Shown here: positions 6,046 through 24,171 of the stretch, in pieces | Position numbering within the stretch: position 1 is the stretch's first letter | How the letters are laid out: each line of letters opens with the position of its first letter | Assembly: GCA_903930675.1 (NCBI GenBank) | Contig: CAIYZJ010000007.1 | Span: forward strand, 9,589-73,588 | Reading direction: 5' to 3' | Length of the DNA: 64,000 nt | Origin: an uncultured Hyphomicrobiales bacterium | Lineage (GTDB): Bacteria; Pseudomonadota; Alphaproteobacteria; Rhizobiales; Beijerinckiaceae | Position numbers and translations under genes: made by a program | Notes under the pieces: model-generated | Seen by the model: the letters and a program-made list of their open reading frames with translations, nothing else | What the model was told of the DNA's origin: nothing | Database searches by the model: none

Positions 6046-6078
6046 CCGTCCGGCCCTTCACTGGCAGTTACAGCCTAT

Positions 6079-8339: not shown

Positions 8340-8403
8340 CGGACTGCGCAATCATGGGGAGCAGGGATGGCCATTAGCCATAAAATGCAAATTATTCCTA
8401 TAT

Positions 8404-8422
8404 AGGACTATAGTCCTTGACA
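8404..8422 (+). promoter_or_regulatory. 14-bp perfect palindrome AGGACTATAGTCCT abutting/overlapping a TTGACA -35-like hexamer
   Basis: 8404-8417 is self-complementary. TTGACA lies at 8417-8422, and TATTTT lies 18 nt downstream as a weak -10. Confidence 0.35.
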
Positions 8423-8543
8423 GGGACAATGGTTTTGCCTTATTTTTGAAATGTCCAAAAGCCTGCAGGCCGGTACGGCAGGGAAGGATGGGGCCTGTCT
8501 CTTGTCACCGGGGTTGCAGGGTCATTTCAAGAGGCCCGAAGCC

Positions 8544-9044
8544 ATGACATTGATCAGTGAACAGTTTTTCAAACCCTATTCCCCATGTCACCTTGCCACT
8601 GCAAAGCCGTCGCGTGTGACGCCCGGGGCTTGCGCGTGCCAGAGCCCTGCCACCCGTCCGTTTCTGGCCGAAGGGCCGGACGGTGTGCGCAGGCGTCTGG
8701 GGTGTTTGCTCGACAAGGATATGGCCCAGCTCGAAAGCGGCAAAAGCATCACAAAACTGCTCAAACGCGGCAAGCTGATTGCCCGTTGGGCCCGAGCTGT
8801 CAAAGACATCACAACGCCCGCCTGTCGGGAGCAGACAAAGCCCGTATTGGCAGATGCCGCGCAAGCAGTGCCCCTTCAGACAGCCCCAAGGCAAGCCACA
8901 AGACAAGCCCCAAGACAAGCCCCAAGACAAGCCCCTCCACCATGGGAGCGGACCACGTCCGTGCCCTTGGGTGTGGAAGCCTTCCGGACCGCTGTGGCAA
9001 AGGAGCTGTCGTTGATCCGCGATAAAAAGGAAAATATTCCTTGA
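8544..9044 (+). CDS. Hypothetical protein with a (PRQA)n repeat; start uncertain (8451, 8544 or 8731)
   Basis: Open frame 8451..9044 with host-like third-position GC. No recognisable domain. Lies immediately upstream of the GTA cluster. Confidence 0.35.
   Translation: MTLISEQFFKPYSPCHLATAKPSRVTPGACACQSPATRPFLAEGPDGVRRRLGCLLDKDMAQLESGKSITKLLKRGKLIARWARAVKDITTPACREQTKPVLADAAQAVPLQTAPRQATRQAPRQAPRQAPPPWERTTSVPLGVEAFRTAVAKELSLIRDKKENIP
8887..8934 (+). repeat. In-frame 12-bp tandem repeat (CAAGACAAGCCC), 4 copies
   Basis: Copies at 8887-8898 (2 mismatches), 8899-8910, 8911-8922 and 8923-8934. It encodes the QATRQAPRQAPRQAP tract. Confidence 0.9.
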
Positions 9045-9127
9045 CATTGTGACGCTGCTCCGGTAGAGTTCATTCATCATCCGGTGTTGCGCTTTGTTCC
9101 GGTGACCCCATCCGTTTTATTCAATTC

Positions 9128-9158
9128 CGGGCATGGCAGCATTCTGCCGTGCCCTTTT
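9128..9158 (+). terminator. Canonical intrinsic terminator in the leader immediately upstream of GTA g1
   Basis: 11-bp stem GGGCATGGCAG / CTGCCGTGCCC (one G-U pair), loop CATT, then TTTTT. The g1 ATG at 9172 is 13 nt past the T-run. Confidence 0.65.
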
Positions 9159-9171
9159 TATTGGACCTGTC

Positions 9172-9717
9172 ATGACCCGAACTCTGGTGCAAATGATCGA
9201 GGCTCCGGTTGATGCTCCGCTTGATCGGGAGGAGCTGTGCCGTCTCTATCGCGACAGCGACGAGACGGTGGCCAGTCTGATGGCGCGGTCGGGATTGCGG
9301 CCCCCCGAATTCTATCAGCTGCTGCGTGATCAGGGTCTTGCGCTGAGGCGTCCGCGCCGCAATGGCCGCGTGGCGCATGATCCCGAAATGCCGCGCAAGC
9401 CGGTGCGCAGGGAGGATCTGATTGCGCGGTTGTGGGAGGCAGCGTCCGGCCATATGGCGCAAATCGAAACGCGGCTGGCGCGGCTTGATCGCGGGCAGGC
9501 CAGTGACACCCCGCCCGCCGGAACCGAAAGCGAGCTTCGCTTGATGGGCCTGATTGTCAAAACCCTGCGTGATCTGGCAGCTCTTGATGCGGATGTCGCA
9601 GGGGCGCGGAAGAAGGAGATGGTTCAAGATGACCTTGCCGCCGAACTGGCCACCTGCCCCGAAAGCATGCGCGCGGAACTGGCTCGACGTCTTGCTGGAT
9701 TGCGCGAAGGCCGGTGA
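9172..9717 (+). CDS. GTA g1-like protein (putative small terminase/DNA-packaging specificity subunit)
   Basis: Position directly upstream of and overlapping TerL, about 180 aa, Arg-rich helical protein. Assignment is by synteny. Start could also be ATG 9133. Confidence 0.6.
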   Translation: MTRTLVQMIEAPVDAPLDREELCRLYRDSDETVASLMARSGLRPPEFYQLLRDQGLALRRPRRNGRVAHDPEMPRKPVRREDLIARLWEAASGHMAQIETRLARLDRGQASDTPPAGTESELRLMGLIVKTLRDLAALDADVAGARKKEMVQDDLAAELATCPESMRAELARRLAGLREGR

Positions 9718-11026
9718 GGAAAAACGGGTCATTGCCTCGCTGAGCGAACGCGAGATCGAATTCATGCTGGCCGACTGGATGAGCTGGGCGCGGCCCGACC
9801 AGTGCCCGCCTGGTGTGTCGCAAGCCGGATTGCCGTGGACGGTCTGGCTGGTGCTGGGCGGGCGCGGAGCAGGAAAAACGCGGACAGGCGCGGAATGGGT
9901 GCGCGGCATGGCGCTCGGCCTGCCGCCCTTTGCCGACCGTCCTGCCGGACGCATTGCCTTGGTGGGCGAAACCCAAGCCGATGTGCGCGATGTGATGATC
10001 GAAGGCGTGTCGGGCCTGTTGTCGGTGCACCGGCGCGACGAACGGCCGGTCTGGCAGGCGTCCCGCCGCAGGCTGGAATGGCCCAATGGCACAATCGCGC
10101 AGGCCTTTTCGGCGGAAGATCCCGACAGTCTGCGCGGGCCGCAATTCGATGCCGCGTGGCTCGATGAACTGGGCAAATGGCGGCGCGCGGAAGAGACCTT
10201 CGACATGTTGCAATTCGGGTTGCGGCTGGGTGCGCAACCGCGCCAGACAGTGACGACAACGCCGCGGCCTGTGCCTTTGCTGAAACGGCTGATGGAAGAC
10301 CCTGCCACCGCCATTTCGCGGGCGGCCACCCGTGCCAATGCGTTTCATCTGGCACCGTCCTTTCTCGATGCCGTGGTCAAGCGTTATGCGGGCACGCGGC
10401 TGGGCAGGCAGGAGCTGGAAGGCGAGTGGCTGGACGAGCGCAACGATGCTTTGTGGTCGCGCGCCGCAATAGAAACCTGCCGGATCGGGGCGGGCGCAAT
10501 TCCGCCTTTGCAAAGGCTGGTGGTGGCGATCGACCCGCCGGCCAGCTCGAGCCGCAACTCGGATTCCTGCGGGCTGATTGTCGCGGGGATTGATGCCAAC
10601 CGCACGGTCCATGTGCTCGAGGATGCGACGCTGTCGCAAGCGCGTCCGCATGTCTGGGCCGGAAAGGCCGCTGCACTCTATCGGGACTACGAGGCCGATG
10701 CCGTGGTGATCGAAACCAATCAGGGCGGCGAGATGGCCGAGGCCGTGTTGCGGGAAGCCGATCCCGGCTTATCCGTGCTGCCGGTTCGCGCCACCAGAGG
10801 CAAGATGCTGAGGGCCGAACCTGTCGCACTTCTTTACGAACAAGGACGAGTGAAACATGCAGGACTTTTCCGTGAGCTTGAAGATGAAATGTGTGATTTC
10901 GGCCCTAACCAGGATGGTTGGGGCCTGTCGAACGGCCATTCGCCGGACCGGCTCGATGCTCTGGTCTGGGCTGTTACAGCTCTGGCACTGGGCCCGAAAG
11001 CAGCTCCGCGTGTGAGGCGGTTGTAA
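9629..11026 (+). CDS. Phage/GTA terminase large subunit (RcGTA g2 homologue)
   Basis: WARPDQ...VWLVLGGRGAGKTRTGAEWV (Walker A) ...AWLDELGKW (Walker B-like) ...VVAIDPPASS...CGLIVAG (nuclease). AAGGAG lies 10 nt upstream of ATG 9629. 89-nt overlap with g1. Confidence 0.92.
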   Translation: MTLPPNWPPAPKACARNWLDVLLDCAKAGEEKRVIASLSEREIEFMLADWMSWARPDQCPPGVSQAGLPWTVWLVLGGRGAGKTRTGAEWVRGMALGLPPFADRPAGRIALVGETQADVRDVMIEGVSGLLSVHRRDERPVWQASRRRLEWPNGTIAQAFSAEDPDSLRGPQFDAAWLDELGKWRRAEETFDMLQFGLRLGAQPRQTVTTTPRPVPLLKRLMEDPATAISRAATRANAFHLAPSFLDAVVKRYAGTRLGRQELEGEWLDERNDALWSRAAIETCRIGAGAIPPLQRLVVAIDPPASSSRNSDSCGLIVAGIDANRTVHVLEDATLSQARPHVWAGKAAALYRDYEADAVVIETNQGGEMAEAVLREADPGLSVLPVRATRGKMLRAEPVALLYEQGRVKHAGLFRELEDEMCDFGPNQDGWGLSNGHSPDRLDALVWAVTALALGPKAAPRVRRL

Positions 11027-11077: not shown

Positions 11078-12274
11078 ATGAGCACTCTTTTCGACCGCTG
11101 GCTGCGGCGTGCTTTCGCACGTCCCGATCACAGCAAAACCTCCGCCACCGGCCCGATGATGGCACTATACCAGACGGGACGTCCGGTCTGGACGCCGCGC
11201 GATTATGCGAGCCTTGCCAAAGAGGGATTCCAGACCAATCCGATTGTCTATCGCGCCGTCCGCATGATTGCGGAAGCCGCCGCTTCGGTGCCTCTGCTGC
11301 TGTATGACGGCCGCAAGGAACTGGCCGATCATCCGCTGCTGCGGCTGATGGTTACACCCAATCCGCGCGATAGCGGCACGGTGTTGCGCGAAGCCCTGTT
11401 CGGCTATCTGCTGGTGTCGGGCAATGCCTATCTGGAAGCAGTGTCCGACAGCAAGCAGGTGCGCGAGCTCTATGCCCTGCGGCCCGACCGGATGCGGGTG
11501 GTGCCCGGCGCGGATGGCTGGCCTGCCGGTTACGCGTATCAGGTCGGCGGGCAATCGGTGCAGTTCGACCAGCATGCCGCCCCCGTGCCGCAGATCCTGC
11601 ATCTGACCCTGTTCCATCCGCTCAACGACCATTACGGCCTGTCGCCGATGGAAGCAGCGGCCGCCTCGATCGATATCCACAATGCGGCGGGGGGATGGAA
11701 CAAGGCGTTGCTCGACAATGCCGCACGACCCTCGGGGGCATTGGTCTATGCCGGACCTCCGGGTGCGACATTGGGGGCCGAACAATTCGAACGGTTGAAA
11801 AGCGAGCTGGAAGCCTCGTTTCAGGGTTCGGCCAATGCGGGGCGGCCCTTGTTGCTGGAAGGCGGGCTGGACTGGAAGCCGCTGTCGCTGACCCCGAAGG
11901 ACATGGACTTCATGGAAGCCAAAGCGGCAGCAGCGCGCGACATCGCGCTGGCCTTCGGCGTGCCGCCGATGCTGCTCGGCCTGCCCGGTGACAACACCTA
12001 CGCCAATTATGCCGAAGCCAACCGTATCTTCTGGCGGCAGACGGTGATCCCGCTCGCCAGCCGGATTGCCGACAGCATCGCGCATTGGCTGTCGCCGGTT
12101 TACGGGGCTGTGAAACTCCAGCCCGATCTCGACCGGATCGATGCCCTGTCGCAGGAGCGCGAGGCATTGTGGTCGCGCTTGGGCAAGGCCGATTTTCTCA
12201 GTGTCGACGAAAAGCGCGAGGCGGTCGGCTACGGCCCGTTGCATGGCGCATCGACCGGCAAGAACGAGCCATGA
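11078..12274 (+). CDS. HK97-family portal protein (RcGTA g3 homologue)
   Basis: 398 aa. NPIVYRAVRMIAEAAASVPLLLY...GNAYLEAV...MEAKAAAARDIALAFGVPPMLLGLPGDNTYANYAEANRIFW is typical of HK97 portals. Confidence 0.93.
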   Translation: MSTLFDRWLRRAFARPDHSKTSATGPMMALYQTGRPVWTPRDYASLAKEGFQTNPIVYRAVRMIAEAAASVPLLLYDGRKELADHPLLRLMVTPNPRDSGTVLREALFGYLLVSGNAYLEAVSDSKQVRELYALRPDRMRVVPGADGWPAGYAYQVGGQSVQFDQHAAPVPQILHLTLFHPLNDHYGLSPMEAAAASIDIHNAAGGWNKALLDNAARPSGALVYAGPPGATLGAEQFERLKSELEASFQGSANAGRPLLLEGGLDWKPLSLTPKDMDFMEAKAAAARDIALAFGVPPMLLGLPGDNTYANYAEANRIFWRQTVIPLASRIADSIAHWLSPVYGAVKLQPDLDRIDALSQEREALWSRLGKADFLSVDEKREAVGYGPLHGASTGKNEP

Positions 12275-12483: not shown

Positions 12484-12681
12484 ATGATTGACCGTTTGTC
12501 CGTCCGATTGCCGCGCCTTCCCGACACGCCCGATCATCCCGCTGTGACGGGAGAGGCCGAAAGGGTGCAAAGCCGTTTCTGGCAGCATCTGGTGCGTCTG
12601 ACTGCTCCGGCCCGCCGTGTCCGGCAAATCCGCAAAGGCTTTGCGTCCACGCGCGGCCTGTCGCTGGAGGGCGTGTTGTGA
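12484..12681 (+). CDS. Hypothetical 65-aa ORF between g3.5 and the prohead protease
   Basis: ATG start. Its stop overlaps the GTG start of the protease (GTGA). Third-position GC is host-like. No homologue recognised. Confidence 0.3.
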   Translation: MIDRLSVRLPRLPDTPDHPAVTGEAERVQSRFWQHLVRLTAPARRVRQIRKGFASTRGLSLEGVL

Positions 12682-13154
12682 GTGAACGGCACAGCGTGGG
12701 CACGGGCATGCCCGTGGGTGAATTCGACGGCTATGCCAGCCTGTTCGGCGTGCCCGATCTCGGCCGCGATGTGGTGGCCAGCGGGGCTTTCGGCGACAGC
12801 CTGCAGAGCCGCGGCGGTGCTGCGGGAATCCGTCTGTTGTGGCAGCACGACCCCGCCCAGCCCCTCGGTGTCTGGACCGATATCCGGCAGGACCAGCGCG
12901 GGCTGTATGTGCGCGGGGCTTTGAACCTGTCGGTGGCGCGCGGGCGCGAATTGTTCGCGCTGATGCAACAGGGCGCGGTGGCGGGCCTGTCGATTGGCTA
13001 CCGCACCCGGAAGGCCCATGCGGATGCCCGCCAACGGCTGCGGATTTTGACCCGCATCGACTTTTGGGAAGTGTCGCTTGTGACCTTCCCTCTACTGCCC
13101 TCGGCCCGTGTGATGCGGGTTGCGGGATCCCCCTCGAACCGGAGATACCCATGA
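12678..13154 (+). CDS. HK97-family prohead protease (RcGTA g4 homologue)
   Basis: EFDGYASLFGVPDLGRDVV..GAF...LLWQHD...PLGVW...GLSIGY...EVSLVTFP is the prohead protease signature. GTG start at 12678 (alternative ATG at 12708). Confidence 0.9.
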   Translation: MSERHSVGTGMPVGEFDGYASLFGVPDLGRDVVASGAFGDSLQSRGGAAGIRLLWQHDPAQPLGVWTDIRQDQRGLYVRGALNLSVARGRELFALMQQGAVAGLSIGYRTRKAHADARQRLRILTRIDFWEVSLVTFPLLPSARVMRVAGSPSNRRYP

Positions 13155-14440
13155 CACGATCCAATGTATCAGTGCAGCCTTCCCAGCTGCCTCCTGTTTT
13201 GCTGGCCCCGGAAGTCAAGGCTTTCGACGCCACGCCTGCCGATGCCCTCGACAGCGTCAACCGCCATTTCGAAGCCTTCAAGGACGAGAACGACACGCGC
13301 CAGTCGCTGGCCGAGAAAGGCCGTTCGGTCGATGTGCTGGTGGAAGAAAAACTCGCGCGCATTACGCAGGCGCTCGACGAGGCGCAGAGCCGTTTGGACA
13401 GCGCCTTGCGCCAGCAACGCCGCCCGATGCTCGACGGTGCGGAGCATGACGCGACCAGTCCGCAGCACCGCCAATACAAAAGCGCATTTCATGATTATAT
13501 GCGCTCGGGTGAAACCGCAGGGCTGAAAGCGCTCGAACTCAAGGCCCTGTCGGCAGGCAGTCCGACCGATGGCGGCTATCTGGTGACGCCGCCGGTCGAG
13601 CGCGAAATTCTCAAGCGCATGTCGGTGGCCTCGCCGATCCGCTCGATTGCTTCCGTCCAGCAGATTTCGACCGCGACCTATCGCAAGGCCTATTCGACCA
13701 CCGGACCGGGCTCGGGTTGGATCGGCGAAACCGTAACGCGTCCGCAAACCGCTTCGCAGGTGATTGCCGATCTGAGCTTTCCGACCATGGAACTCTATGC
13801 GATGCCTGCGGCCACGCAGACCCTGCTGGACGATGCGGCGGTCAATGTCGAACAATGGATTGCCGAGGAAGTGCAGGTGGTGTTTGCCGAGCAAGAAGGT
13901 GCGGCCTTCGTCAATGGCGACGGCGTGACCAAGCCGCTCGGCTTTATGACACCGCCCAAAATTGCGCAGGCGAATTGGATTTGGGGGCGTCTCGGCTATG
14001 TCGTCACCGGCCTGTCGGCAGGCTTCAACACCACCAACGGATCGGACGCTCTGATTGATCTGATCTATGAAGTGAAAGCGGGCTATCGCCAGAGCGGCAG
14101 TTTTGTGATGAACCGCAAAACACAGGCCGCGATCCGCAAGCTCAAGGCGACAACCGGCGAATATTTGTGGCAGCCTCCGGCCGTGCTGGGCCAGCCCGCC
14201 ACCTTGATGAATTTCCCGCTCGTCGAGGTCGAGGACATGCCCGATATTGCCGCGGACAGTTTCTCGGTCGCCTTCGGCAATTTCGCCCGCGCCTATCTGA
14301 TCGTCGACCGGATCGGCATTCGGGTGCTGCGTGATCCCTATTCCAACAAGCCCTATGTGATGTTCTACACCACCAAGCGCGTGGGCGGCGGCGTGCAGGA
14401 TTTCGACGCGATCAAACTGTTGAAATTCGGCACGGCCTGA
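13151..14440 (+). CDS. HK97-family major capsid protein (RcGTA g5 homologue)
   Basis: N-terminal coiled-coil delta domain (FEAFKDENDTRQSLAEKGRSVDVLVEEKL...), then GGYLVTPP...ELYAMPAAT...FVNGDGVTKP...YVMFYTTKRVGGGV. ATGA overlap with the protease stop, and GGAGA as RBS. Confidence 0.93.
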   Translation: MTRSNVSVQPSQLPPVLLAPEVKAFDATPADALDSVNRHFEAFKDENDTRQSLAEKGRSVDVLVEEKLARITQALDEAQSRLDSALRQQRRPMLDGAEHDATSPQHRQYKSAFHDYMRSGETAGLKALELKALSAGSPTDGGYLVTPPVEREILKRMSVASPIRSIASVQQISTATYRKAYSTTGPGSGWIGETVTRPQTASQVIADLSFPTMELYAMPAATQTLLDDAAVNVEQWIAEEVQVVFAEQEGAAFVNGDGVTKPLGFMTPPKIAQANWIWGRLGYVVTGLSAGFNTTNGSDALIDLIYEVKAGYRQSGSFVMNRKTQAAIRKLKATTGEYLWQPPAVLGQPATLMNFPLVEVEDMPDIAADSFSVAFGNFARAYLIVDRIGIRVLRDPYSNKPYVMFYTTKRVGGGVQDFDAIKLLKFGTA

Positions 14441-14449
14441 TGACGGGCC

Positions 14450-15196
14450 TCACCGTTTCAGGGTCTTGTCGATCCATGCACGGTGGGGTGCCAGCATGAT
14501 GCCCTGAGTCATCGTCCCGCAACGGGCCTGACCCTTGCCCTCGCTCCAGACCGTGATGGCTTGCAACACGCCGTCACGGTCAAAAATGCCGCCGCCGGAA
14601 TCGCCCGTGCAGGCACCCTGATTGGCTTGGCCCGAGAGCCAGAGCAACAGCTTGCCCTGTCCGTAGGGAGTGACCACGGGCAGTGTGATCTGCCGCAAAC
14701 TGCCGATGCTGTCGGGCTGTGACTCGTTAGACAATCCAAACCCCTGAATGGTCAGCCGCGTCTCTTTGGCCTGGGGCGGCTGGTTGGCAGGCGGCAATTG
14801 GCTTTGCGTGAATGTGTCGGGCAATGCGCGTTTGGTCTGGATGACGGCAAGATCGATCGAGCGGCTGCGTGCGGCAATGGCATCGCTGTGATAATCGGGA
14901 TGGATGGTGATGCGTTTGGGCTCTTCCATCACAGGCTTTCCGTCTGTCCCGCGCCAATGCAGCCGGTAGGCCGAACCGCCTGTCACGCAATGGGCGGCTG
15001 TCAGCACGGCATCGGGAGCAATCACCACGCCGGAACAGACCGTGCCGCGATCCGACAAGACCATCAGCATCGGGCTATCTCCGGCCGGCACGGTTTGTCC
15101 GCCGACAATCGCCCCTGCCGGTGGTGTGACCAGTAGCGTTGCGCCCAAGGCGAGCAGGATAACGGGCTTGCGGGGCCGGACATGGTTGTGGCGCAT
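14450..15196 (-). CDS. Secreted trypsin-like serine protease (peptidase S1 family)
   Basis: Signal peptide ending ...PPAGA, followed directly by IVGG. Catalytic motifs TAAHC, DLAVIQT and GDSGGG are present. It lies on the opposite strand inside the GTA cluster. Confidence 0.88.
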   Translation of the reverse strand: MRHNHVRPRKPVILLALGATLLVTPPAGAIVGGQTVPAGDSPMLMVLSDRGTVCSGVVIAPDAVLTAAHCVTGGSAYRLHWRGTDGKPVMEEPKRITIHPDYHSDAIAARSRSIDLAVIQTKRALPDTFTQSQLPPANQPPQAKETRLTIQGFGLSNESQPDSIGSLRQITLPVVTPYGQGKLLLWLSGQANQGACTGDSGGGIFDRDGVLQAITVWSEGKGQARCGTMTQGIMLAPHRAWIDKTLKR

Positions 15197-15259
15197 CACG
15201 GGTGAAGACCTGTTTCGGGATTGATTTTTTTTCTGATCCTCTCATCGGAGATTTTGCAG

Positions 15260-15820
15260 ATGTTGTCCATGCAATTGATCACGGAACCGGCCAGCGAGCC
15301 GGTGACGCTGGACGAGGCCAAGCTTTTTTTGCGCATCGACACCGCGGATGACGATGCCTTGCTGGCCACTCTGATCACGGCCAGCCGCCGTCTGGTCGAA
15401 CAGACCACCGGCAAATGTCTGTTGCTACAGACATGGCGGTTCGGGGTCGACCGCTGGCCTGTTTCCGCATTGCTGCGTTTGCCCTTGTCCCCCCTGTTGT
15501 CATTGTCGGCAGTGACGGTGATGGACGGAACGGGCAATCGGGTGGCGCAAACCCTCGCCAATTTCCCGATCAATGCGACCAGCGTGCCGCCGACAATCCA
15601 GGCCAAAACCGTGCCGTCTTCCGGTGCTGTTTGCGAAGGTGGAATCCAGCTTGATGCCGTGTTCGGTTATGGCACCACCGCTGCCTCTGTGCCGCAGCCT
15701 TTGCGGCTGGCGGTACTGATGGTGGCTGCCCAATTTTACGAGACGCGCGGGCAGGGTGAAACCATCCTGCCCGGGGCCGTCCGGACCCTGATTGCCCCGT
15801 TTGTCAGGAGAACCTTATGA
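15260..15820 (+). CDS. Head-tail connector/adaptor protein (RcGTA g6 homologue)
   Basis: EPVTLDEAKLFLRIDTADDDALLATLITASRRLVEQTTGKCLL.QTW is the gp6-like head-tail connector N-terminus. GGAG lies 9 nt upstream of ATG 15260. Confidence 0.8.
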   Translation: MLSMQLITEPASEPVTLDEAKLFLRIDTADDDALLATLITASRRLVEQTTGKCLLLQTWRFGVDRWPVSALLRLPLSPLLSLSAVTVMDGTGNRVAQTLANFPINATSVPPTIQAKTVPSSGAVCEGGIQLDAVFGYGTTAASVPQPLRLAVLMVAAQFYETRGQGETILPGAVRTLIAPFVRRTL

Positions 15821-16182
15821 GCACGCCCTTGCATGAAGCCGTTGTGCTGGCCCGCGATCCCGCACTGGCCGGACGTCTGCGTGACCGGCTGAGCGTGGAA
15901 ATCCCGATTGACGCGCCCGACGGTTATGGCGGGATGACCCGCAGCTATCAGGTCAGCACCAAGGTCTGGGGGGTGATCGTGCCCTTCCGGATCTGGACAG
16001 GACGCGGACCCGATCAGGACGGGCAGGTGATCAGCCAGTTGGTGGTGATGCGCTGGCGCAATGATATCGAAACCGGCATGCGCCTGCGCAAAGGCTCGCG
16101 CATCTTGCGGATCTGCCAGCTGGCCGATGCCGACGGGCGGCGCATGCGCATGGTGTGTCTGTGCGAGGAGGATCACGCATGA
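15817..16182 (+). CDS. Head-tail joining/stopper protein (RcGTA g7 homologue)
   Basis: 121 aa, ATGA-coupled to g6. Size, position and the pattern DGYGG....W..V..VWG.I.P are typical of head closure proteins. Confidence 0.7.
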   Translation: MSTPLHEAVVLARDPALAGRLRDRLSVEIPIDAPDGYGGMTRSYQVSTKVWGVIVPFRIWTGRGPDQDGQVISQLVVMRWRNDIETGMRLRKGSRILRICQLADADGRRMRMVCLCEEDHA

Positions 16183-16631
16183 GTGCGACAGTTCCGGTGA
16201 TTACAGGTCCGGTGCTCGCCTTGCGGGCGGGCCTGCGCAATTTCTGGTTGGCTGATCCGGTGCTGCCGGGTCTGCTGGGCGGGGAGAAAATTTATGACAC
16301 GGCCCCGCGCTCGGTGGTGCCGCCTTATGTCACCTTCGGCAGTGTCAGCGCCAGACAATGGCTGGCCAGCAGCTTGCGCGGGCATGAGCAGGCGGTGTCG
16401 GTCTCGGTCTGGTCCCGCCAGATGTCCGACCGCGAAAGTCTGGAGATTGCCAGCCGTTTGAGCCTGATCAGTGACGGGGCCGTGCCGGCAATAGCGGGCT
16501 ATCAGCTCTGGCCCTTGCAGGTGGTGATGCTGGATTGTCCGCAAGGCAATCTGCCGGACAATCCGCAAGGTTTACGACAGGTTGTGGTGACCCTGCGCGC
16601 ATTCAGTGCACCATTGAGCAGCTCTCAGTAA
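16179..16631 (+). CDS. DUF3168-type tail terminator protein (RcGTA g8 homologue)
   Basis: 150 aa, ATGA-coupled to g7. KIYDTAPRSVVPPYVTFGSVSAR fits the DUF3168 pattern. Confidence 0.7.
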   Translation: MSATVPVITGPVLALRAGLRNFWLADPVLPGLLGGEKIYDTAPRSVVPPYVTFGSVSARQWLASSLRGHEQAVSVSVWSRQMSDRESLEIASRLSLISDGAVPAIAGYQLWPLQVVMLDCPQGNLPDNPQGLRQVVVTLRAFSAPLSSSQ

Positions 16632-16963
16632 AGCGGAGTTTGGGCGAGCGCGGCACTGATTTCCTCGCGCGTCTGGCTGTGCTGGTTTTTCAGCATGGCC
16701 AGAAATTCAGCGCTGGCCGGTTCCACCCCTGATTCGATCGCACCGATATTGTGGCTGAGCGAGGTGTAATAGGCGACCAGTCTGCGGAAGGCCTGATCGC
16801 GATGTTTGAGCCGCGCAAAATCGGCGGAATGACCTGAAAATTCTTCTTCGACAGAGCGCAACGCGGGGGCAATCGCAAAGCCTGTGTCCTCGGCTTGAAT
16901 CTGCGGTTCTGTCCGGTCTGGATCGGGGACGTTCACAACAACACTCCTGATGGGCATGTCCAT
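16625..16963 (-). CDS. Orphan hypothetical protein (about 112 aa) occupying the position of the missing g9-g11 genes
   Basis: Minus-strand ORF with host-like codon usage. Its stop overlaps the g8 stop by 7 nt. Only the part that does not overlap g12 is kept. Start could be 16957, 16963 or 16966. Confidence 0.45.
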   Translation of the reverse strand: MDMPIRSVVVNVPDPDRTEPQIQAEDTGFAIAPALRSVEEEFSGHSADFARLKHRDQAFRRLVAYYTSLSHNIGAIESGVEPASAEFLAMLKNQHSQTREEISAALAQTPLY

Positions 16964-17041
16964 CATAAGGCCAAACCAGCCTGCCCGACAAGGAGACCCG
17001 GTTCGGCTGCAGCTGGTTTCAAACATGGATGGCGAGGATTT

Positions 17042-17701
17042 ATGAGCACGGATTTTCATGACGTGGTTTTTCCGCTGGCCTTGTCGATGCAGGCGCGCGG
17101 CGGGCCGCAACGGCGCACGGACATCATCACCACGGGGGCAGGACGCGAGAACAGGGTCAGCCGCTGGGCCTGTTCGCGCTATCATTATGACATCGGCTCG
17201 GGGATCAAAACCCGCGCCGATCTGGCCCTGTTGTTGAATTTTTTCGAGGAGCGGCGCGGCGCGTTTTACGGTTTCCGGTTTCGCGATCCGCTCGATCGTT
17301 CCAGCGCGGCGCCGGATGCGGCAGTGACCCCGTTCGATCAGGTGATCGGGCAGGGGGACGGCACGCGCATGGCGTTTCAACTGGTCAAAACCTATGGCGC
17401 ATTATTCGCGCCCTATGCACGCCCGATTTTCAAACCGGTGGCTGGCACCATCCGGATTGCGGTGGCGGGAGTGGAGGTTCTGTTGGGGCAGGATGCCGAT
17501 TGCGATCCGCGCACCGGTCTGGTGCGGTTTCGCGCAGGGCACTGTCCGGCGGCGGGACAACAGGTCACGGCAGGTTTCCGCTTCGATGTGCCCGTGCGTT
17601 TTGCCGAGGACCGGCTGGAGGTTGCGCTCGATGCCTTCGGCAGCGGCGAGATCGCCAAAATCAGTCTGATCGAATTGCTTTGCCAACCGGAAAAGGCATA
17701 G
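17042..17701 (+). CDS. DUF2460-type distal tail protein (RcGTA g12 homologue)
   Basis: FHDVVFPLALSMQARGGPQRRTDIITTGAGRENRVSRW..SRYHYDIG...FFEERRGAFYGFRFRDPLD is the DUF2460 signature. GAGGA as RBS. Confidence 0.88.
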   Translation: MSTDFHDVVFPLALSMQARGGPQRRTDIITTGAGRENRVSRWACSRYHYDIGSGIKTRADLALLLNFFEERRGAFYGFRFRDPLDRSSAAPDAAVTPFDQVIGQGDGTRMAFQLVKTYGALFAPYARPIFKPVAGTIRIAVAGVEVLLGQDADCDPRTGLVRFRAGHCPAAGQQVTAGFRFDVPVRFAEDRLEVALDAFGSGEIAKISLIELLCQPEKA

Positions 17702-17705
17702 GGCC

Positions 17706-18584
17706 ATGCGCAATATTCCTCCGAGTTTTACAGGTGATGCCGCCAGTCTTGCCCTGTGCTGGCGGATCATGCGGCGCGATGGCGCGGTGCTGGGATTTAC
17801 CCAGCATGATGCCGATCTGGTATTCGGCGGGATCACGCATCAGGCACGCAGCGGGCTGGATGTGGAGTCTGCCCAAATACAGGCAGGGCTTGCCGGAAGC
17901 GAGACCGTGCTGCTGGGCGTGCTGATGTCCGAGAGTGTCACTCTGGCCGATATTCTGGCCGGACTTTATGACCATGCCACCATCGAAACATGGCTGGTGG
18001 ACTGGAGCGATCCGACCCTTTGCGTCCTGCTTGATTGCGGCTCGATCGGACGGATCGAGGCATCCGATCACGGGTTCAAGGTCGAGGTGCGATCCGTCAT
18101 CGACCAGTTGATGCAACCGCAGGGGCGGCTGTTTCAGGCCCATTGCGCGGCCGATCTGGGCGATGCGCATTGCGGGATAGATTTGAGCGGTTCCGCCTAT
18201 CGGCTCGAGGGCGTGGTGCGTGCCACAGATGGCCGCAGCATGCTGGCACTGGATGCGGGCGGCTTTGCCGCCGATGCCTTCAGTCGCGGCCTGTTGCAGG
18301 TGCTCGATGGCGCCAATGCGGGTATGCGCGCGGATATCAAGATGCATGATGTCGCCTCCGGTCAGGCGCGGATCAGTCTGTGGCAGGCCTTGCCAAACGT
18401 GCTTGCCGCGGGGGATCGGGTGGTGGCGATTGCGGGTTGCGACAAGCTGGCTGCCACCTGCCAGACCCGCTTCGGCAACATCATAAATTTTCGCGGATTT
18501 CCGCGCATGCCGGGCAATGATCTGTTGATCCGTCGGGTCAATGACGGCGAAGCGGGCATGGATGGCGGGAGCCTGTTTCAATGA
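17706..18584 (+). CDS. DUF2163 / BR0599-type baseplate hub protein (RcGTA g13 homologue)
   Basis: ASLALCWRIMRRDGAVLGFTQHD.DLVFGG..H.A.SG...C-terminal CDKLAATCQTRFGNIINFRGFPRMPG is typical. Confidence 0.88.
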   Translation: MRNIPPSFTGDAASLALCWRIMRRDGAVLGFTQHDADLVFGGITHQARSGLDVESAQIQAGLAGSETVLLGVLMSESVTLADILAGLYDHATIETWLVDWSDPTLCVLLDCGSIGRIEASDHGFKVEVRSVIDQLMQPQGRLFQAHCAADLGDAHCGIDLSGSAYRLEGVVRATDGRSMLALDAGGFAADAFSRGLLQVLDGANAGMRADIKMHDVASGQARISLWQALPNVLAAGDRVVAIAGCDKLAATCQTRFGNIINFRGFPRMPGNDLLIRRVNDGEAGMDGGSLFQ

Positions 18585-19033
18585 GCGCGCCAACCGACAT
18601 GCTGGCCGCCCGCGTGGTGGAGGAAGCACGCCGCTGGATCGGCACGCCCTATCTGCATCAGGCTTCGTTGTGCGGGGTGGGATGCGACTGCCTTGGTCTG
18701 GTGCGCGGCATCTGGCGTTCTGTCTACGGGGAAGAGCCCGAAGCCGTTCCCCATTACAGCGCCGATTGGGCCGAGGCCTCGGGCATCGAACATTTGCTCA
18801 TGGCCGGACACCGGCATTTTCTGCCGGTGGATACGGACGATATGGCCGCCGGTGATGTGGTGCTGTTTCGCTGGCGTGCGCATTGGCCAGCCAAACATCT
18901 GGGTGTGGTGTCGGGCGAAGGCAGCATGATCCATGCCCATGCGGGGGCAGTGGTGGCCGAGGTGCATTTCGGCATCTGGGCACGGCGCATCGCACAGGTC
19001 TTTCGCTTTCCGCCACCAGCTGAACGGGGTTGA
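18581..19033 (+). CDS. NlpC/P60 family cell-wall peptidase (RcGTA g14 homologue)
   Basis: WIGTPYLHQASLCGVGCDCLGLVRGIW...KHLGVV....MIHA carries the Cys and His catalytic residues. ATGA-coupled to g13. Confidence 0.9.
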   Translation: MSAPTDMLAARVVEEARRWIGTPYLHQASLCGVGCDCLGLVRGIWRSVYGEEPEAVPHYSADWAEASGIEHLLMAGHRHFLPVDTDDMAAGDVVLFRWRAHWPAKHLGVVSGEGSMIHAHAGAVVAEVHFGIWARRIAQVFRFPPPAERG

Positions 19034-22000
19034 TGATGGGCACTTTGATCTTGAATGCCGCGCAGGGCTCGGTGCGGGCGACGGCGGGCGGATTGGCCGG
19101 TCATGCGGTCGGCTCGCTCTTGGGCGGCGGGCCGATCGGCACGATGTTCGGGCGTATCGCCGGTCAGGCTTTGTCGGGCGCGCTGTCGGACCACCGGACC
19201 CGCTTGCATGATGGTCCGCGCCTGCATGACATGCCGGTGATGGGGGCGACAGAGGGCGCGCCCGTTCCGAAAGTCTATGGCCGCGCGCGTATCGGTGGCA
19301 CCTTGATCTGGTCGACCCGTTTTGCCGAGGTGATCAGCCAGACCGAAACCGAAACCGGCTCGGGCGGTTCCTCCGGCGGGCTCGGTTTCAAGGGCGGTGG
19401 CGGCGGCAGTTCCACCATCAACCGGACCTATTCCTATTACGGCAATTTCGCGGTGGCGGTGTGCGAAGGACCGGTGGCTTTCATCCGGCGCATCTGGGCC
19501 GACGGGCAGTTGATCGACCAGCAATCGGTCAGTTTGCGCATCTATCGCGGCGATGAAAACCAGCAGCCCGATCCGCTGATTGTGGCCAAGGAAGGGGCAG
19601 CCAATACGCCTGCTTTTCGCGGCACCTGTTATGTGGTGTTCGAACGGATGCCGCTGGCCGCATTCGGCAACCGCCTGCCGCAATTGAGCTTCGAGGTGGT
19701 GCGTCCGGTCAACGGCGTCGGGCAGAAAATCCGCAGCATCAACCTGATCCCCGGCTCGGGCGAATTTGCCTATGGCGTCACCGCCGTCTCGCGCGATTTC
19801 GGGCAGGGCAACAGCCAGTCCGAAAACCGCCATGATCTGTCGGGTGCATCCGACTGGATGGTCTCGCTCGATGCCTTGCAGGCCCTTTGCCCCAATCTGC
19901 GCCATGTACAATTGGTGGTGAGCTGGTTCGGTGATGATTTGCGCTGCGACAGCTGCACAGTGGCTCCGCGTATCGATCTGGCCGACAAGGCGACCATCGG
20001 CGCGCAATGGATGGTGGCGGGATTGACGCGGGCCGGCGCGCGTCCAGTCAGTCAGGTCAACGGTCGCGCGGCCTATGGCGGCACGCCGTCCGATCAATCG
20101 GTGATGGAAGCGATTGCCGATCTGCGGCGGCGCGGTCTGGCGGTTACGCTTTACCCGTTTTTGATGATGGATATTCCCGCTGCCAATACGCTGCCCGATC
20201 CGTGGAGCGGGGCCGCAAGCCAGCCCGCTTTCCCGTGGCGCGGACGCATCACGTGCACTCCGGCGATCGGGCAACCGGGTTCTCCCGACGGCACTCTGGC
20301 TGCTGCCACGGCGGTACAAAAATTTTTCGGCACGGCCAGTGCCTCCCAGTTCAGCTATGGCAACGGCGTGGTTTTTTCGGGCGGAGCGGAATGGTCGTGG
20401 CGGCGCATGGTGCTGCATTGTGCCACGCTCGCCAAAGCGGCCGGAGGTGTGAACGGCTTCATCATCGGATCGGAATTTGTCACGCTCAACCATATCCGCA
20501 GCGGCATCGGGACCTTTCCGGCTCCCAATGCCTTTGCCGCTTTGGCCAACGAGGTGCAATCGGTTTTGGGGCCTTCGACCGTGCTGACCTATGCGGCCGA
20601 TTGGACCGAATATGGCGGCTATAGCCCGAAGGCGGGCGAATTGCGTTTTCCGCTCGATGTGCTGTGGTCGCATCCGGCTATCGGGGCGGTGGGGATTGAT
20701 GCCTATTGGCCTGTCTCGGACTGGCGCGACGGCAACCCGCATCTCGATCTGGGCCAGACCGACTCTCTTTACGATCCGGCCTATCTGGCGGCGGGCATGG
20801 TGTCTGGCGAAAATTTCGATTGGTATTATGCCAGCCCCGCCGACCGCCAAGCGCAGTTGCGCACGCCGATCAGCGACGGCAGCATCAACAAGCCGTGGGT
20901 GTGGCGGGCCAAGGATGTCAAAAGCTGGTGGTCCAATCCGCATGTCGAGCGATTGAACGGGGTTGAATACACTTCGCCGACGCCGTGGCAGCCTTGTTCG
21001 AAACCGGTCTGGCTGACAGAGATCGGTTGTCCGGCCGTCGACAAGGGGTCCAATGCGCCCAATGTGTTCCCCGATCCGAAATCATCGGAATCCGCTTTGC
21101 CGCCGTTCTCGCATGGCCAGCGCGACGATGTGATGCTGCTGCGCTTTGTCGAGGCCGCACTGCTGGCTTTCGATCCCTTTCAGGGGGCCGATAGCAGCCG
21201 CAATCCGGTGTCTCCTGTCTATGGCGGGCGGATGATCGACCCCGACCGCATCAGCTTCTGGACATGGGATGCGCGGCCCTTTCCGGCCTTTCCCTTGATG
21301 GGCGATGTCTGGGCCGATCACAGCAACTGGCAAACCGGCCATTGGCTGACCGGCCGGCTCGAAAGCATCCCGCTCGACGGATTGATGAAAGCCATGCTGG
21401 CGGATGCCGGTCTGGCCGTGCCATTGGCGGGCCGTGTCGACGAGGTCATTGACGGCTATGTCGTCGACCATCCGATGAGCGTCGCCGAGATGATTGCACC
21501 CCTGTGCGATCTGCTCGATATCGAAGTGGCGGCCTCGGGTTCGGGGTTGCGTCTGCTGTCGCCCCAACGCAAGCCGGTGGTGCAACTGGCACTCGACGAC
21601 TTCGTGCCCTTGCCGGACGGGGGCTTGTTCGATCACCACCGCACCCGCGACACGGCTCTGCCGAGTGAATTGGCTTTGGGGTTTACCGAGGCCGAGGCCG
21701 ATTATCGCCGCGCCGTTGTTTCATCGCGGCGGCTGGCCAGCGGCACCGGGCGCAAGAGCTTGGCCGAATTTGCGCTGATGACCCGCCGCAGCGAGGCCCA
21801 GCGCATGGCCGACACTTGGCTGCACCGCGTCTGGACGGGGCGGGACGAAGTGAGCTTTGCTCTGGCACCGCGCTGGATCGGGCTCGAAGTCGGCGATGTG
21901 GTGACGCTGCCTTTGAGTAATCCGGCGCGCAGCTTTGTGATCACCACGATCCGAGAACAGGGGATGCGCTTGATCACGGCGCGCGCGGTGGCCGATCCTG

Positions 22001-22998
22001 CGGGCAAGGCGCGGACCACTTCCATGCCTGCGCCATCGATGACTGCGCCGAAACTGGCCAGTCGTCCATGGGTGGCGATTTTCGATTTGCCGGTCACCAC
22101 GGGATCTCCCGTGGTGATGCAGGTGATTGCGGCCTTTGCCGATCCGTGGCCGTCCAGCCTGACGGTCTGGCGGTCCGCCGACGGGACTTCGTATGATCCG
22201 GTGCTGACGCTGGATGCGCCGGCCCGCATCGGCCGCTTGGTCAGTGATCTGCCTGCCGGTCATCTGTGGGTGTGGGACGAATCCTGCACGCTGACCATCG
22301 AGTTGCAAGGCGGGGTTTTGACCAGTCCGGGTGATCTCAACGGTTTGGGCGCATCGCCCGCGTTGGCTGTGGAGGGCGTGGACGGGACATGGGAAGTGAT
22401 CGGCTTTGCGCGGGCCGAACTGGTCGGGCCGAAGCAATGGCGGTTGAGCCGTCTCTTGCGCGGGCTCGGCGGTTCGGAACGTTCGGCACAACGCTTTGTT
22501 GCTTCGGGTGCGCGCTGTGTGGTGCTTGACGGGGCGGTCAAGCCGCTGCGGCAGGGCTTGGCGGCTTTGGGCGAAGTCTGGCACTGGCGGGTTGCGGCCT
22601 CGCATCTCGACCATGCTGATCCGATGGCGGTGGCGGTCGACTCGACCGTCAGCGGGGCGGCTCTGGTGCCTCTGTCTCCGGTGGGCCTGAGCGCCAGACG
22701 CACGAGCCAGGGCATTGTGTTGAACTGGATCAGGCGTGCGCGCTCGGATGCCGATGGTTGGGGCCTAACGGATATTCCGCTCGAGGAGGACAGCGAGACC
22801 TATCAGGTCGGCATTGTCAAAGCAGGCCAGACCATCCGGCAGATGGTGGTTGCGTCCTCCACCTGCCTCTATGCCGCCAGCGATGAATGGGCCGATTTCG
22901 GGCAGGCGCAAAGCACGCTGTCCGTCACCATCCGCCAGATCAGCGCGGCAGTCGGACCGGGGGCGGCTTTGAATGCGCAGGCGGTCATTCTCTCCTGA
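19033..22998 (+). CDS. GTA host-specificity/baseplate megatron protein (RcGTA g15 homologue)
   Basis: 1321 aa. N-terminal Gly-rich region. The central region (FIIGSEFVTLN...VWLTEIGCPAVDKGSNAPNVFPDPKSSE) resembles the GTA TIM-barrel-like domain. C-terminal phage-tail-like domain. Confidence 0.92.
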   Translation: MMGTLILNAAQGSVRATAGGLAGHAVGSLLGGGPIGTMFGRIAGQALSGALSDHRTRLHDGPRLHDMPVMGATEGAPVPKVYGRARIGGTLIWSTRFAEVISQTETETGSGGSSGGLGFKGGGGGSSTINRTYSYYGNFAVAVCEGPVAFIRRIWADGQLIDQQSVSLRIYRGDENQQPDPLIVAKEGAANTPAFRGTCYVVFERMPLAAFGNRLPQLSFEVVRPVNGVGQKIRSINLIPGSGEFAYGVTAVSRDFGQGNSQSENRHDLSGASDWMVSLDALQALCPNLRHVQLVVSWFGDDLRCDSCTVAPRIDLADKATIGAQWMVAGLTRAGARPVSQVNGRAAYGGTPSDQSVMEAIADLRRRGLAVTLYPFLMMDIPAANTLPDPWSGAASQPAFPWRGRITCTPAIGQPGSPDGTLAAATAVQKFFGTASASQFSYGNGVVFSGGAEWSWRRMVLHCATLAKAAGGVNGFIIGSEFVTLNHIRSGIGTFPAPNAFAALANEVQSVLGPSTVLTYAADWTEYGGYSPKAGELRFPLDVLWSHPAIGAVGIDAYWPVSDWRDGNPHLDLGQTDSLYDPAYLAAGMVSGENFDWYYASPADRQAQLRTPISDGSINKPWVWRAKDVKSWWSNPHVERLNGVEYTSPTPWQPCSKPVWLTEIGCPAVDKGSNAPNVFPDPKSSESALPPFSHGQRDDVMLLRFVEAALLAFDPFQGADSSRNPVSPVYGGRMIDPDRISFWTWDARPFPAFPLMGDVWADHSNWQTGHWLTGRLESIPLDGLMKAMLADAGLAVPLAGRVDEVIDGYVVDHPMSVAEMIAPLCDLLDIEVAASGSGLRLLSPQRKPVVQLALDDFVPLPDGGLFDHHRTRDTALPSELALGFTEAEADYRRAVVSSRRLASGTGRKSLAEFALMTRRSEAQRMADTWLHRVWTGRDEVSFALAPRWIGLEVGDVVTLPLSNPARSFVITTIREQGMRLITARAVADPAGKARTTSMPAPSMTAPKLASRPWVAIFDLPVTTGSPVVMQVIAAFADPWPSSLTVWRSADGTSYDPVLTLDAPARIGRLVSDLPAGHLWVWDESCTLTIELQGGVLTSPGDLNGLGASPALAVEGVDGTWEVIGFARAELVGPKQWRLSRLLRGLGGSERSAQRFVASGARCVVLDGAVKPLRQGLAALGEVWHWRVAASHLDHADPMAVAVDSTVSGAALVPLSPVGLSARRTSQGIVLNWIRRARSDADGWGLTDIPLEEDSETYQVGIVKAGQTIRQMVVASSTCLYAASDEWADFGQAQSTLSVTIRQISAAVGPGAALNAQAVILS

Positions 22999-23025: not shown

Positions 23026-24171
23026 ATGGCACAAACGGCACGGCTCGGTCTGGTTCTGATGGCAGCGGCGCAAGCGCAAAAGCATGTGACGCATAATGAT
23101 GCTTTGCTTTCAATCGACGCGCTGGTTCAGGCAGTGGTGGCCGAGACGGATCGTCTGGCTCCGCCCGCCGCCCCGCAAGAGGGCGATGCCTATCTGATCG
23201 GCACGGCCCCGACAGGCGCCTTTGCCGGACAGGCAGGGATGCTGGCGGCCTTCATCTCGGGAAGCTGGCGGTTCTTCCAGCCGCAGACCGGCTGGCTGGT
23301 GTTTGTCAAAAGCCGCAATGCTATGATGGTTCTTAGCGGCGGCAGCTGGCATGTGCTGGATGATCTGGCCCAAAGCTTTGCCAATCTCAAAAGCCTCGGA
23401 ATCGGCACCTCGGCTGATGCGGTCAACCGGCTGGCCGTCAAAACCAATGCGGCTTTGTTTGTGGCCACCAGTGCCGCCGAGGGTGGCAGCGGTGATTTGC
23501 GCGTGGCCTTCAACAAGCCGCTGGCCACCGGCACGGTCTCGCATCTGTTCCAGACCAATTGGTCGGGCCGCACCGAATTGGGCTTGACCGGCGATGACCA
23601 GTTCCACATCAAAGTCTCGCCCGATGGCAGCACATGGACCGAAGCTCTCGTGTGTTCTTCCACCACCGGCGCGGTGCGGATGGACCGGATGCTGACGGGG
23701 CGCGCCACCCCGCGTGTGATGGCCTGTTACGAGGCCGAATTTGCAGGCGCAAGCAAACAGGGCATCGCGCTCAATGACACAGGCACGGCGGCCTCCACTG
23801 CGATCAGCTTCAGTCGGGCGGGGGTGCTGATCGGCTCGGTCGGGCTGGCCAGTGCGGGGGTGAGTTTCAACACCACGTCCGATTATCGCCTGAAAACCGC
23901 GATCAAGCCGCTGTCATGTGCCACTGACCGGCTGAAACAACTCAAGCCCTTGCGCTATTCCTTTGTCTCGCATCAAAGTGGTGAGCTCGACGGGTTTCTG
24001 GCCCATGAGGTGGCTGCTGTCGTACCCGAAGCGGTGACGGGAGCCAAAGACGCGGTGGATCCGCACGGCCTTCCGGTGTGGCAGCAGTTGGACCAGACGC
24101 GGTTGATCCCCTTGTTGGTGGCTGCTTTGCAGGAAGCTCTGACGCGGATCGAGACGCTTGAGGCGCGGTAA
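23026..24171 (+). CDS. DUF2793-type tail fibre protein with a C-terminal S74-like intramolecular chaperone domain
   Basis: N-terminus TARLGLVLMAAAQAQKHVTHNDALLSIDALVQ..V and GDAYLIG (DUF2793). C-terminus TSDYRLKTAIKPL...LKQLKPLRYSF......DGFLAHEVAAVVPEAVTG..D...........QQLDQTRLIPLLVAALQE resembles the endosialidase-type auto-cleaving chaperone. Confidence 0.8.
   Translation: MAQTARLGLVLMAAAQAQKHVTHNDALLSIDALVQAVVAETDRLAPPAAPQEGDAYLIGTAPTGAFAGQAGMLAAFISGSWRFFQPQTGWLVFVKSRNAMMVLSGGSWHVLDDLAQSFANLKSLGIGTSADAVNRLAVKTNAALFVATSAAEGGSGDLRVAFNKPLATGTVSHLFQTNWSGRTELGLTGDDQFHIKVSPDGSTWTEALVCSSTTGAVRMDRMLTGRATPRVMACYEAEFAGASKQGIALNDTGTAASTAISFSRAGVLIGSVGLASAGVSFNTTSDYRLKTAIKPLSCATDRLKQLKPLRYSFVSHQSGELDGFLAHEVAAVVPEAVTGAKDAVDPHGLPVWQQLDQTRLIPLLVAALQEALTRIETLEAR

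Follow-up and report, generated by a model that had tools for sequence, protein, structure and literature searches.

Can a gene transfer agent (GTA) whose gene cluster has lost the tail tube still form a particle, and how did such a cluster arise? The question is raised by a 64,000-nucleotide stretch of DNA (hereafter, the window) from contig CAIYZJ010000007.1 of an uncultured Hyphomicrobiales bacterium, which carries on its plus strand, at ~9.6-24.2 kb, a head-tail cluster of the type known from RcGTA, the GTA of Rhodobacter capsulatus. Pfam analysis finds the RcGTA-like head module in order (terminase, portal, S78 protease and HK97-type capsid), the neck (g6, g7 and g8) and the baseplate (the DUF2460 protein g12, the hub g13, the NlpC/P60 peptidase g14 and the GTA_TIM protein g15). 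However, the families that in RcGTA lie between g8 and g12, namely Phage_tail_2, Phage_TAC_11, Phage_TAC_6 and RcGTA_tape, corresponding to g9, g10, g10.1 and g11, are absent from this position in the window, though they are present in the clusters of its relatives. The gene for the tail terminator, g8 (16179-16631, plus strand; 150 aa; Pfam Tail_completion_gp17), ends at 16631 and that for the distal tail protein, g12 (17042-17701, plus strand; Pfam DUF2460, E=2.5e-76), starts at 17042. The 410 nt between them hold no plus-strand gene and are fully covered by a 312-nt minus-strand gene and a 105-nt promoter spacer. As detailed below, the comparisons with relatives point to one old deletion, after which the remaining genes were kept under selection, and a particle without a tube is the outcome that we consider most likely.

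The absence of the tube genes is supported by several searches. An earlier note on this DNA, made from the sequence alone, had reported that g9-g11 are missing between g8 and g12 and that nothing tube-like or tape-measure-like was recognised elsewhere in the 64 kb, and the Pfam order, profiles and tblastn bear out both statements. Profiles for g9, g10, g10.1 and g11, made from 58-82 relatives, gave zero matches in six-frame translations of the window and 13 related contigs, while control profiles built alike recovered the window g6 (E=1e-20) and g8 (E=3e-6). When the g9-g11 proteins of the tail-bearing contig L092 (see below) were used as tblastn queries, no match to the window was obtained at E≤1e-3; the same queries matched at least 160 other loci at 40-70% identity. 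Sphingomonas g9-g11 likewise gave no tblastn match in the window, but we judged these queries too insensitive, because the window g6 and g7 were missed as well.

A gap of this kind could also reflect an assembly artefact or contain frameshifted remnants of g9-g11, which the earlier note had allowed for. Neither was found. An identical copy of the window g12 protein, flanked by the same genes, is encoded on at least 17 contigs from ENA, JGI, NCBI and Logan, and the GenBank proteins NBS03001.1 (g12) and NBS03003.1 (g8), which derive from metagenome-assembled genome (MAG) data, are separated by an accession gap of two, which leaves space for one gene. Indeed, the g8/g12 junction recurs in dozens of independent assemblies and is thus not an artefact. 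In addition, the 312-nt gene and the 105-nt spacer explain the gap completely, and the six-frame profile and tblastn searches were empty. We regard an artefact or a set of remnants as refuted by these sequence comparisons, with a probability that is close to nil.

What, then, is the minus-strand gene (16625-16936, minus strand; 103 aa)? Its stop codon overlaps that of g8 by 7 nt (16625-16631), as the earlier note had seen, and the note took it for an orphan open reading frame (ORF) in the place of the tail genes, possibly an accessory gene newly recruited into the locus. Such a recruitment would agree with the way the ORF occupies the gap, with the purifying selection on it (ratio of nonsynonymous to synonymous substitution rates, dN/dS, 0.11-0.21) and with the restriction of its present form to the clade that lacks g9-g11. 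However, tail-bearing relatives carry a homologous DUF465 gene at the same position and on the same strand, beside g11. The window protein is 39% identical to the L092 DUF465 protein over 69 residues (BLASTP, E=2e-14), and profile-profile comparison of the window-type and tail-bearing groups gives an hhalign probability of 97.7% (E=1.6e-12), so that homology to bona fide DUF465 members extends over the whole domain. The window protein scores 22.8 bits against Pfam DUF465 (PF04325), and P0004 and P0005 score 19.8 and 20.3 bits, all below the threshold of 25, compared with 60-66 bits for the orthologs in tail-bearing clusters. The gene has diverged strongly in the deletion clade, as is also seen in pairwise identities, which are 27-36% between the deletion-clade proteins and their tail-bearing orthologs and 50-72% among the latter. 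A profile search returned ~30 small proteins of ~80 aa. Close homologs of the window ORF are few, a set of 5.8 billion proteins yielding just eight clusters at 90% identity; every one that was looked up sits at the g8/g12 junction. By sequence and profile comparison, the window gene is the ortholog of the DUF465 gene located between g11 and g12 in tail-bearing clusters. Because the tail-bearing sisters have a minus-strand DUF465 gene next to g12, the gene predates the loss of the tail genes; on this evidence recruitment is refuted, with only a very small residual probability.

Comparison of synteny in relatives, which the earlier note had proposed, gave the ancestral gene order, the minus-strand DUF465 gene included. 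The closest g8 homolog outside the clade (P0019, 51% identity) lies on contigs L092 and L093, which encode, in order, terminase, portal, protease, capsid, a minus-strand trypsin-like protein, g6, g7, g8, g9 (Phage_tail_2), g10 (Phage_TAC_11), g10.1 (Phage_TAC_6), a DUF4258 protein with a helix-turn-helix (HTH) partner, g11, a minus-strand DUF465 protein and g12-g15. The L092 g11 protein has 191 aa and matches NCBIfam RcGTA_tape with E=2e-36, and its DUF465 protein has 80 aa. The DUF4258 and HTH pair between g10.1 and g11 (L092 11460-12245) is toxin-antitoxin-like; the cluster is otherwise complete. The arrangement of g11, minus-strand DUF465 and g12 is also present in L121, L175 (GCA_027489535.1), L178-L192 and L181-L184. 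The g9-g11 unit spans 1.6 kb in L185 (10001-11576) and, with the inserted pair, 2.5 kb in L092 (10413-12904).

The ends of the missing segment can be placed by comparison with these clusters. In tail-bearing clusters g8 is 135-136 aa long and ends in a conserved ALTE-x-I motif. In the deletion clade it has 139-150 aa and runs about 5-6 residues past that end, into sequence antisense to the 3' end of the DUF465 gene, and an alignment of ten g8 proteins shows that the C-terminal motif has been lost or extended. Thus, the deletion removed the stop codon of g8 at its left breakpoint and ended on the right a short way past that of the DUF465 gene. The window, L005, L008/L012 and L193-L195 all share the 7-nt g8/DUF465 overlap and the extended type of DUF465 protein. 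Since L193-L195 are distant from the window (74% capsid and 81% terminase identity), the shared overlap and DUF465 type indicate a single, old deletion. On these sequence comparisons, the loss of g9-g11 is old and clean, comprises at least 1.6 kb and is common to at least five sub-lineages.

The comparisons show the following history with high probability. The ancestor was a freshwater Hyphomicrobiales, Beijerinckiaceae-like bacterium with a standard RcGTA-type cluster and two opposite-strand residents, a trypsin-like gene that separated capsid from g6 and a DUF465 gene that separated g11 from g12. A single deletion took out exactly the tube-assembly unit, g9, g10, g10.1 and g11, its left end removing the g8 stop codon, such that g8 became longer by a few codons, and its right end falling just past the DUF465 stop. 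The DUF465 gene was retained with its own predicted promoter and ribosome-binding site, and the descendants have all retained intact head, neck and baseplate genes under purifying selection.

Two related loci show further losses. In L013 (MAG Umea2_bin-2525, Hyphomicrobiales; 4736-7942) g7-g11 are lacking, g6 abuts g12 and there is no DUF465 gene; since L092, whose head genes are closer to those of the window, possesses the tail genes, the loss in L013 was an independent event. The L013 capsid gene lies in two frames, owing to a frameshift or an assembly error. In L193 (10436-12285) the capsid gene is reduced to its last 26 codons beside the trypsin-like gene and is followed by a Zeta_toxin gene, a state shared with seven similar contigs. 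In L194 and L195, which belong to the sub-lineage of L193, the head module is complete.

The remaining genes do not behave as decaying ones. In comparisons among the window, L005 and L008, at a synonymous divergence (dS) of 0.5-0.8, dN/dS ranges from 0.05 (terminase) to 0.20 (g6), with values of 0.16 for g8 and 0.09 for g12, and is low for all 14 cluster genes of the deletion clade. For the same genes, three tail-bearing groups at similar dS give 0.08-0.36. Judged from these ratios, the remnant cluster is today at least as constrained as complete clusters. Simple decay, which the earlier note had already thought unlikely, does not fit, since dN/dS is no higher than in the tail-bearing clusters.

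However, neck and baseplate proteins have diverged much more, relative to head proteins, than in complete clusters. Between the two sub-clades of the deletion clade, for which the mean identity of head proteins is ~0.76, identity falls to 0.31-0.34 for g7, 0.36-0.43 for g8, 0.53-0.55 for g12 and 0.48-0.53 for g13, compared with ~0.6 for g8 and 0.70-0.77 for g12 in tail-bearing pairs; tail-bearing pairs with a head identity of 0.70-0.72 give 0.50-0.60 for g8 and 0.64-0.77 for g12. Relative-rate tests with 11-19 outgroups gave branch ratios of 1.4-1.7 for g7, g8, g12 and g13 and of 1.1-1.2 for terminase, portal and protease, the capsid (1.5) being the exception. We read these sequence data as a change in the constraint on neck and baseplate proteins after the deletion, followed again by strong constraint.

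These data bear on the possibility that the cluster makes no DNA-delivering particle at all, being either in slow decay or in other use, such as the production of heads alone or of a baseplate-derived device. The faster evolution of neck and baseplate than of head proteins would be expected in this case, as would the independent loss of g7-g11 in L013, with its capsid gene in two frames, and the truncated capsid beside a Zeta-toxin gene in L193 and the seven contigs like it. Indeed, the L193 truncation and the state of L013 show that some lineages do lose particle function. However, the fourteen genes are intact in at least five sub-lineages that are separated by dS ~0.7 or more, their dN/dS of 0.05-0.20 is not above that of tail-bearing clusters, translational coupling is kept, and L194 and L195 are intact although they belong to the L193 sub-lineage. 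We therefore consider it unlikely that particle production has been given up in the clade as a whole.

A second possibility, raised in the earlier note together with a particle that has a very different tail, is that the GTA genome is split, with g9-g11, relocated or taken from a second element with a compatible module, supplied in trans from another locus and the tail normal. The strong purifying selection on the remaining genes agrees with this, RcGTA itself is spread over five loci, and split genomes have been suggested for incomplete clusters (PMC5721377). Relatives of the window cluster are, moreover, rearranged. In L199 (354-857; IMG/VR UViG_3300013093_004959) a clear RcGTA-type tape-measure ORF is found immediately before portal, and the interval from g10.1 to g12 contains none; in L104 g11-g13 are inverted. 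L126 (1-8000, g6-g15) and L177 (1-1640, g6-g11) present tail halves whose upstream flanks lack head genes, that of L177 containing a PG_binding_1 gene instead; these may be split or head-less clusters.

The search for such a module was nonetheless negative as far as it reached. Neither the 64-kb window nor any related contig of the clade contains tube genes. When JGI metagenomes and IMG/VR were scanned with a g9 alignment, at least 80 loci were obtained from each, and none of the at least 160 g9-bearing loci listed was a stand-alone g9-g11 module, which is a weak negative; among the matches listed, g9 adjoined g8 or g10 in a cluster wherever the flanks were informative. A search with the L092 g9 protein returned 7245 hits (best 73% identity, range 65-73%), so that g9 is too conserved to single out one organism. 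Among the best 120 of these 7245, the abundant clusters that were looked up were all intact and came from other organisms; in particular, P0057, P0052, P0066, P0090 and P0080, the abundant or closest g9 proteins, all lie in clusters of other organisms. P0090, from a sample shared with the window lineage (ERZ27277814), was considered as a second cluster of the window genome and rejected; it belongs to another genome, because its locus is flanked by a CxxCxxCC gene of its own. No g9 was linked to accessions of members that carry the deletion cluster (Beijerinckiaceae and Hyphomicrobiales MAGs). Finally, supply of the tail module in trans accounts for the selection just as well, but for the changed constraint only if the tube is foreign, as an orthologous tube leaves the excess divergence of g8, g12 and g13 unaccounted for. 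Taking these points together, we regard a split genome as possible, though slightly less likely than a tube-less particle.

Among the mechanisms considered, the single most likely one, to which we assign a probability of roughly 0.4, is that the deletion clade builds a tube-less, very short-tailed particle. In RcGTA the proteins of the stopper, terminator, tube and distal tail have a common fold and are stacked as rings, the tail comprises just five tube discs, and DNA is delivered only to the periplasm, with an iris in the baseplate that helps to retain the DNA; penetration of the outer membrane is ascribed to g15 and digestion of the cell wall to g14 (PMC7296036). In the deletion clade, the terminator ring (g8) would dock straight onto the distal-tail ring (g12), which has the same fold as the tube ring. 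The g15 iris would hold the DNA, and g14 and g15 would open the outer layers, such that DNA enters the periplasm as in RcGTA. The rapid divergence of neck and baseplate proteins would then represent the re-fitting of the new g8-g12 joint.

We favour a tube-less particle because the deletion takes exactly the genes that are needed only for tube assembly and because the terminator, tube and distal-tail proteins, with their shared fold, have equivalent ring interfaces. In addition, RcGTA has but five tube discs to lose and its DNA needs to reach only the periplasm, the genes for membrane penetration (g15) and wall digestion (g14) are retained, and the excess divergence affects exactly the ring and baseplate proteins, which fits re-fitting. 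The fuller proposal, of a siphovirus-derived, tube-less GTA with directly bound g8 and g12 rings that delivers DNA to the periplasm and has been selected across a freshwater clade, is put forward more tentatively.

Several points weigh against a tube-less particle. Siphovirus tails generally need the tape measure for the start of assembly. To our knowledge, no siphovirus-type element functions without tube and tape measure. The searches covered the window, the clade contigs and the listed metagenome loci, and a module elsewhere in the genome is possible; tail genes do move in relatives, as the tape-measure gene upstream of portal in L199 illustrates. A period of relaxed selection, or adaptation to a foreign tube, might equally have caused the neck and baseplate proteins to diverge in excess. 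Moreover, the channel of RcGTA is plugged by the tape measure, which leaves the particle together with the DNA (PMC7296036).

How does this cluster compare with known systems? It resembles RcGTA (g1-g15) and RcGTA-like large clusters in its families, their order and coupling, to which a DUF2793 fibre gene is added, and its chromosomal position is conserved, with a CxxCxxCC gene upstream, as in L092 and L185. It differs from RcGTA in lacking g9, g10, g10.1 and g11, in the trypsin-like and DUF465 residents on the opposite strand and in the longer C terminus of g8. Incomplete RcGTA-like clusters are known, and a split genome, replaced components or another function have been raised as explanations (Shakya, Soucy and Zhaxybayeva 2017, PMC5721377). 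Like these, the window cluster is large and lacks some of its genes, but here the exact tube unit is lost, the ancestor and the breakpoints are identified, and purifying selection after the loss has been measured. The GTA of Caulobacter crescentus is reported to form ~40 nm particles with no visible tail (Gozzi et al. 2022, PMC9632790), which makes it conceivable that a GTA can have little or no tube; Caulobacter nevertheless encodes a tail tube gene, whereas the deletion clade has none, at least within its cluster. In a literature search we found no report of this clade, of a tube-unit deletion under selection or of tailless or split GTA specifics.

Incomplete-looking RcGTA-like clusters occur in many genomes of alphaproteobacteria, and whether they are functional, split or dead is an open question (PMC5721377). 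The present case is unusually clean, as the ancestor is known, one functional unit has been lost, the loss is old and clade-wide, and the remaining genes are as constrained as their counterparts in complete clusters. Should the particle prove tube-less, paralogy among its rings would have allowed a long-tailed machine to be shortened in a single step, and the way in which surveys score incomplete GTA clusters would change. If the tail genes instead lie elsewhere, no earlier case of the core head-tail genes being split would have been documented for this type of GTA.

The start of the DUF465 gene differs from that first assigned. The earlier note had described an ORF of 112 aa (16625-16963); the ORF and its stop stand, but not the start, as a GTG at 16936, giving 103 aa, is conserved in a spacer alignment of four lineages with an AGGAG 7 nt before it. 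This ribosome-binding site (16944-16948, minus strand) is conserved in the window, L005, L008 and L012. The ATG at 16963 was rejected as a start, being not conserved and located inside the predicted -10 box. Gene callers applied to other assemblies give the 103-aa form, and an exact look-up of the 112-aa ORF returned no match, the start chosen by gene callers being either the GTG that yields 103 aa or one that yields 113 aa. The codon usage of the ORF, which had been called host-like, is somewhat off: the G+C content at third codon positions (GC3) is 0.62, somewhat below the 0.69-0.79 of GTA and host genes.

Upstream of the gene, the spacer contains a TTGTCG that is identical in the four lineages and a TATGAT that is nearly so, 18 nt apart, and a consensus scan predicts a sigma-70-like promoter, TTGTCG/18 nt/TATGAT (16962-16991, minus strand). 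The inverted repeat AAACCAGC/GCTGGTTT that had been noticed in the spacer is an exact 8-nt match (16973-16980 and 17012-17019), its arms lying on either side of the -35 box. In L005 and L008 it is retained in part, with changes on both arms, and the consensus fold is weak (-7.6 kcal/mol). A terminator scan was no richer than shuffled sequence, and an RNA hairpin or terminator was rejected for the repeat on both grounds. As judged from the sequence, the conserved blocks of the spacer fit a promoter better than a hairpin or terminator, and the repeat is a possible operator.

The remote-homology and structure searches that had been suggested for the ORF were informative in part, hhalign connecting it to DUF465 at 97.7% as noted and Foldseek with the structure model returning generic helical matches only, none of them significant (best E=3). 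In the model, helices at 43-77 and 85-107 (pLDDT above 85) form a predicted helical hairpin. The solved DUF465 relative HP1242 (PDB 1ZHC) matches the L092 ortholog by sequence (E=3.6e-5), and the C-terminal 70 residues of the window protein would correspond to the helical hairpin of the DUF465/YdcH family (PF04325). The window protein departs from the family in its sub-threshold score, in a variable N-terminal extension of ~25-35 residues that is predicted to be disordered and in a C-terminal PLY tail. A literature search on DUF465 returned nothing specific.

The other head, neck and baseplate genes are full length by Pfam and coordinates, as had been reported. On the plus strand, the head genes encode the large terminase (g2, 9629-11026; Terminase_6N and Terminase_6C), portal (g3, 11078-12274; Phage_portal, E=7.5e-90), prohead protease (g4, 12678-13154; Peptidase_S78) and major capsid protein (g5, 13151-14440; Phage_capsid, E=6.5e-86), the start of the last overlapping the protease stop as ATGA. 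The head-tail adaptor (g6, 15260-15820; Phage_connect_1) and the stopper or head completion protein (g7, 15817-16182; Phage_HCP) precede g8. Downstream of g12, also on the plus strand, are the baseplate hub (g13, 17706-18584; Phage_phiJL001_Gp84_N and Phage_BR0599), the cell-wall peptidase (g14, 18581-19033; NLPC_P60), the megatron (g15, 19033-22998; GTA_TIM, Phage-tail_3 and Rcc01698_C) and a fibre-like protein (23026-24171; DUF2793 and Peptidase_S74). All start/stop couplings listed in the earlier note are present, ATGA or GTGA coupling being found at portal/g3x, g3.5/protease, protease/capsid, g6/g7, g7/g8 and g13/g14, and g14 and g15 also overlap.

The trypsin-like serine protease gene (14450-15199, minus strand; Trypsin and Trypsin_2; dN/dS 0.16) lies between capsid and g6 and is Pfam-positive in all related contigs. 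It has the same position in most Hyphomicrobiales-type GTA clusters seen and is sometimes duplicated (L100, L103, L109 and L111). The comparisons show that the trypsin-like protease and DUF465 genes are stable opposite-strand residents of Hyphomicrobiales GTA clusters; no mention of either as a resident of GTA clusters was found in our literature search.

Other relatives vary elsewhere in the tail region. In L094, L196 and L201, g10.1 is directly followed by g12, with no tape-measure gene, and L201 has a ParD/ParE-like pair between g9 and g10 (1134-1826). Sphingomonadales clusters, such as that of Sphingomonas flavalba (L035, 8312-10000), have a gene of 563 aa between g11 and g12 with NCTSP_N and TIM-barrel_NCTSP (non-contractile tail sheath) domains. 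In one tail-bearing lineage the megatron g15 is called as two ORFs (603 + 677 aa) in L186, L189 and L190 and is a single ORF of 1282 aa in L185, L187, L188 and L191.

Upstream of the cluster, the CxxCxxCC gene is found in the window, L092 and L185. A 197-aa ORF in this region (8451-9044), without family match and with a dN/dS of 0.4-0.7, may not be a real gene or may be real only in part. Between the window and L005, the genes upstream of terminase (7393-9717; DUF1491, CxxCxxCC and two ORFs) differ by a dS of only ~0.04, compared with ~0.5 from terminase onward, and this jump suggests that recombination has had a breakpoint where the cluster begins.

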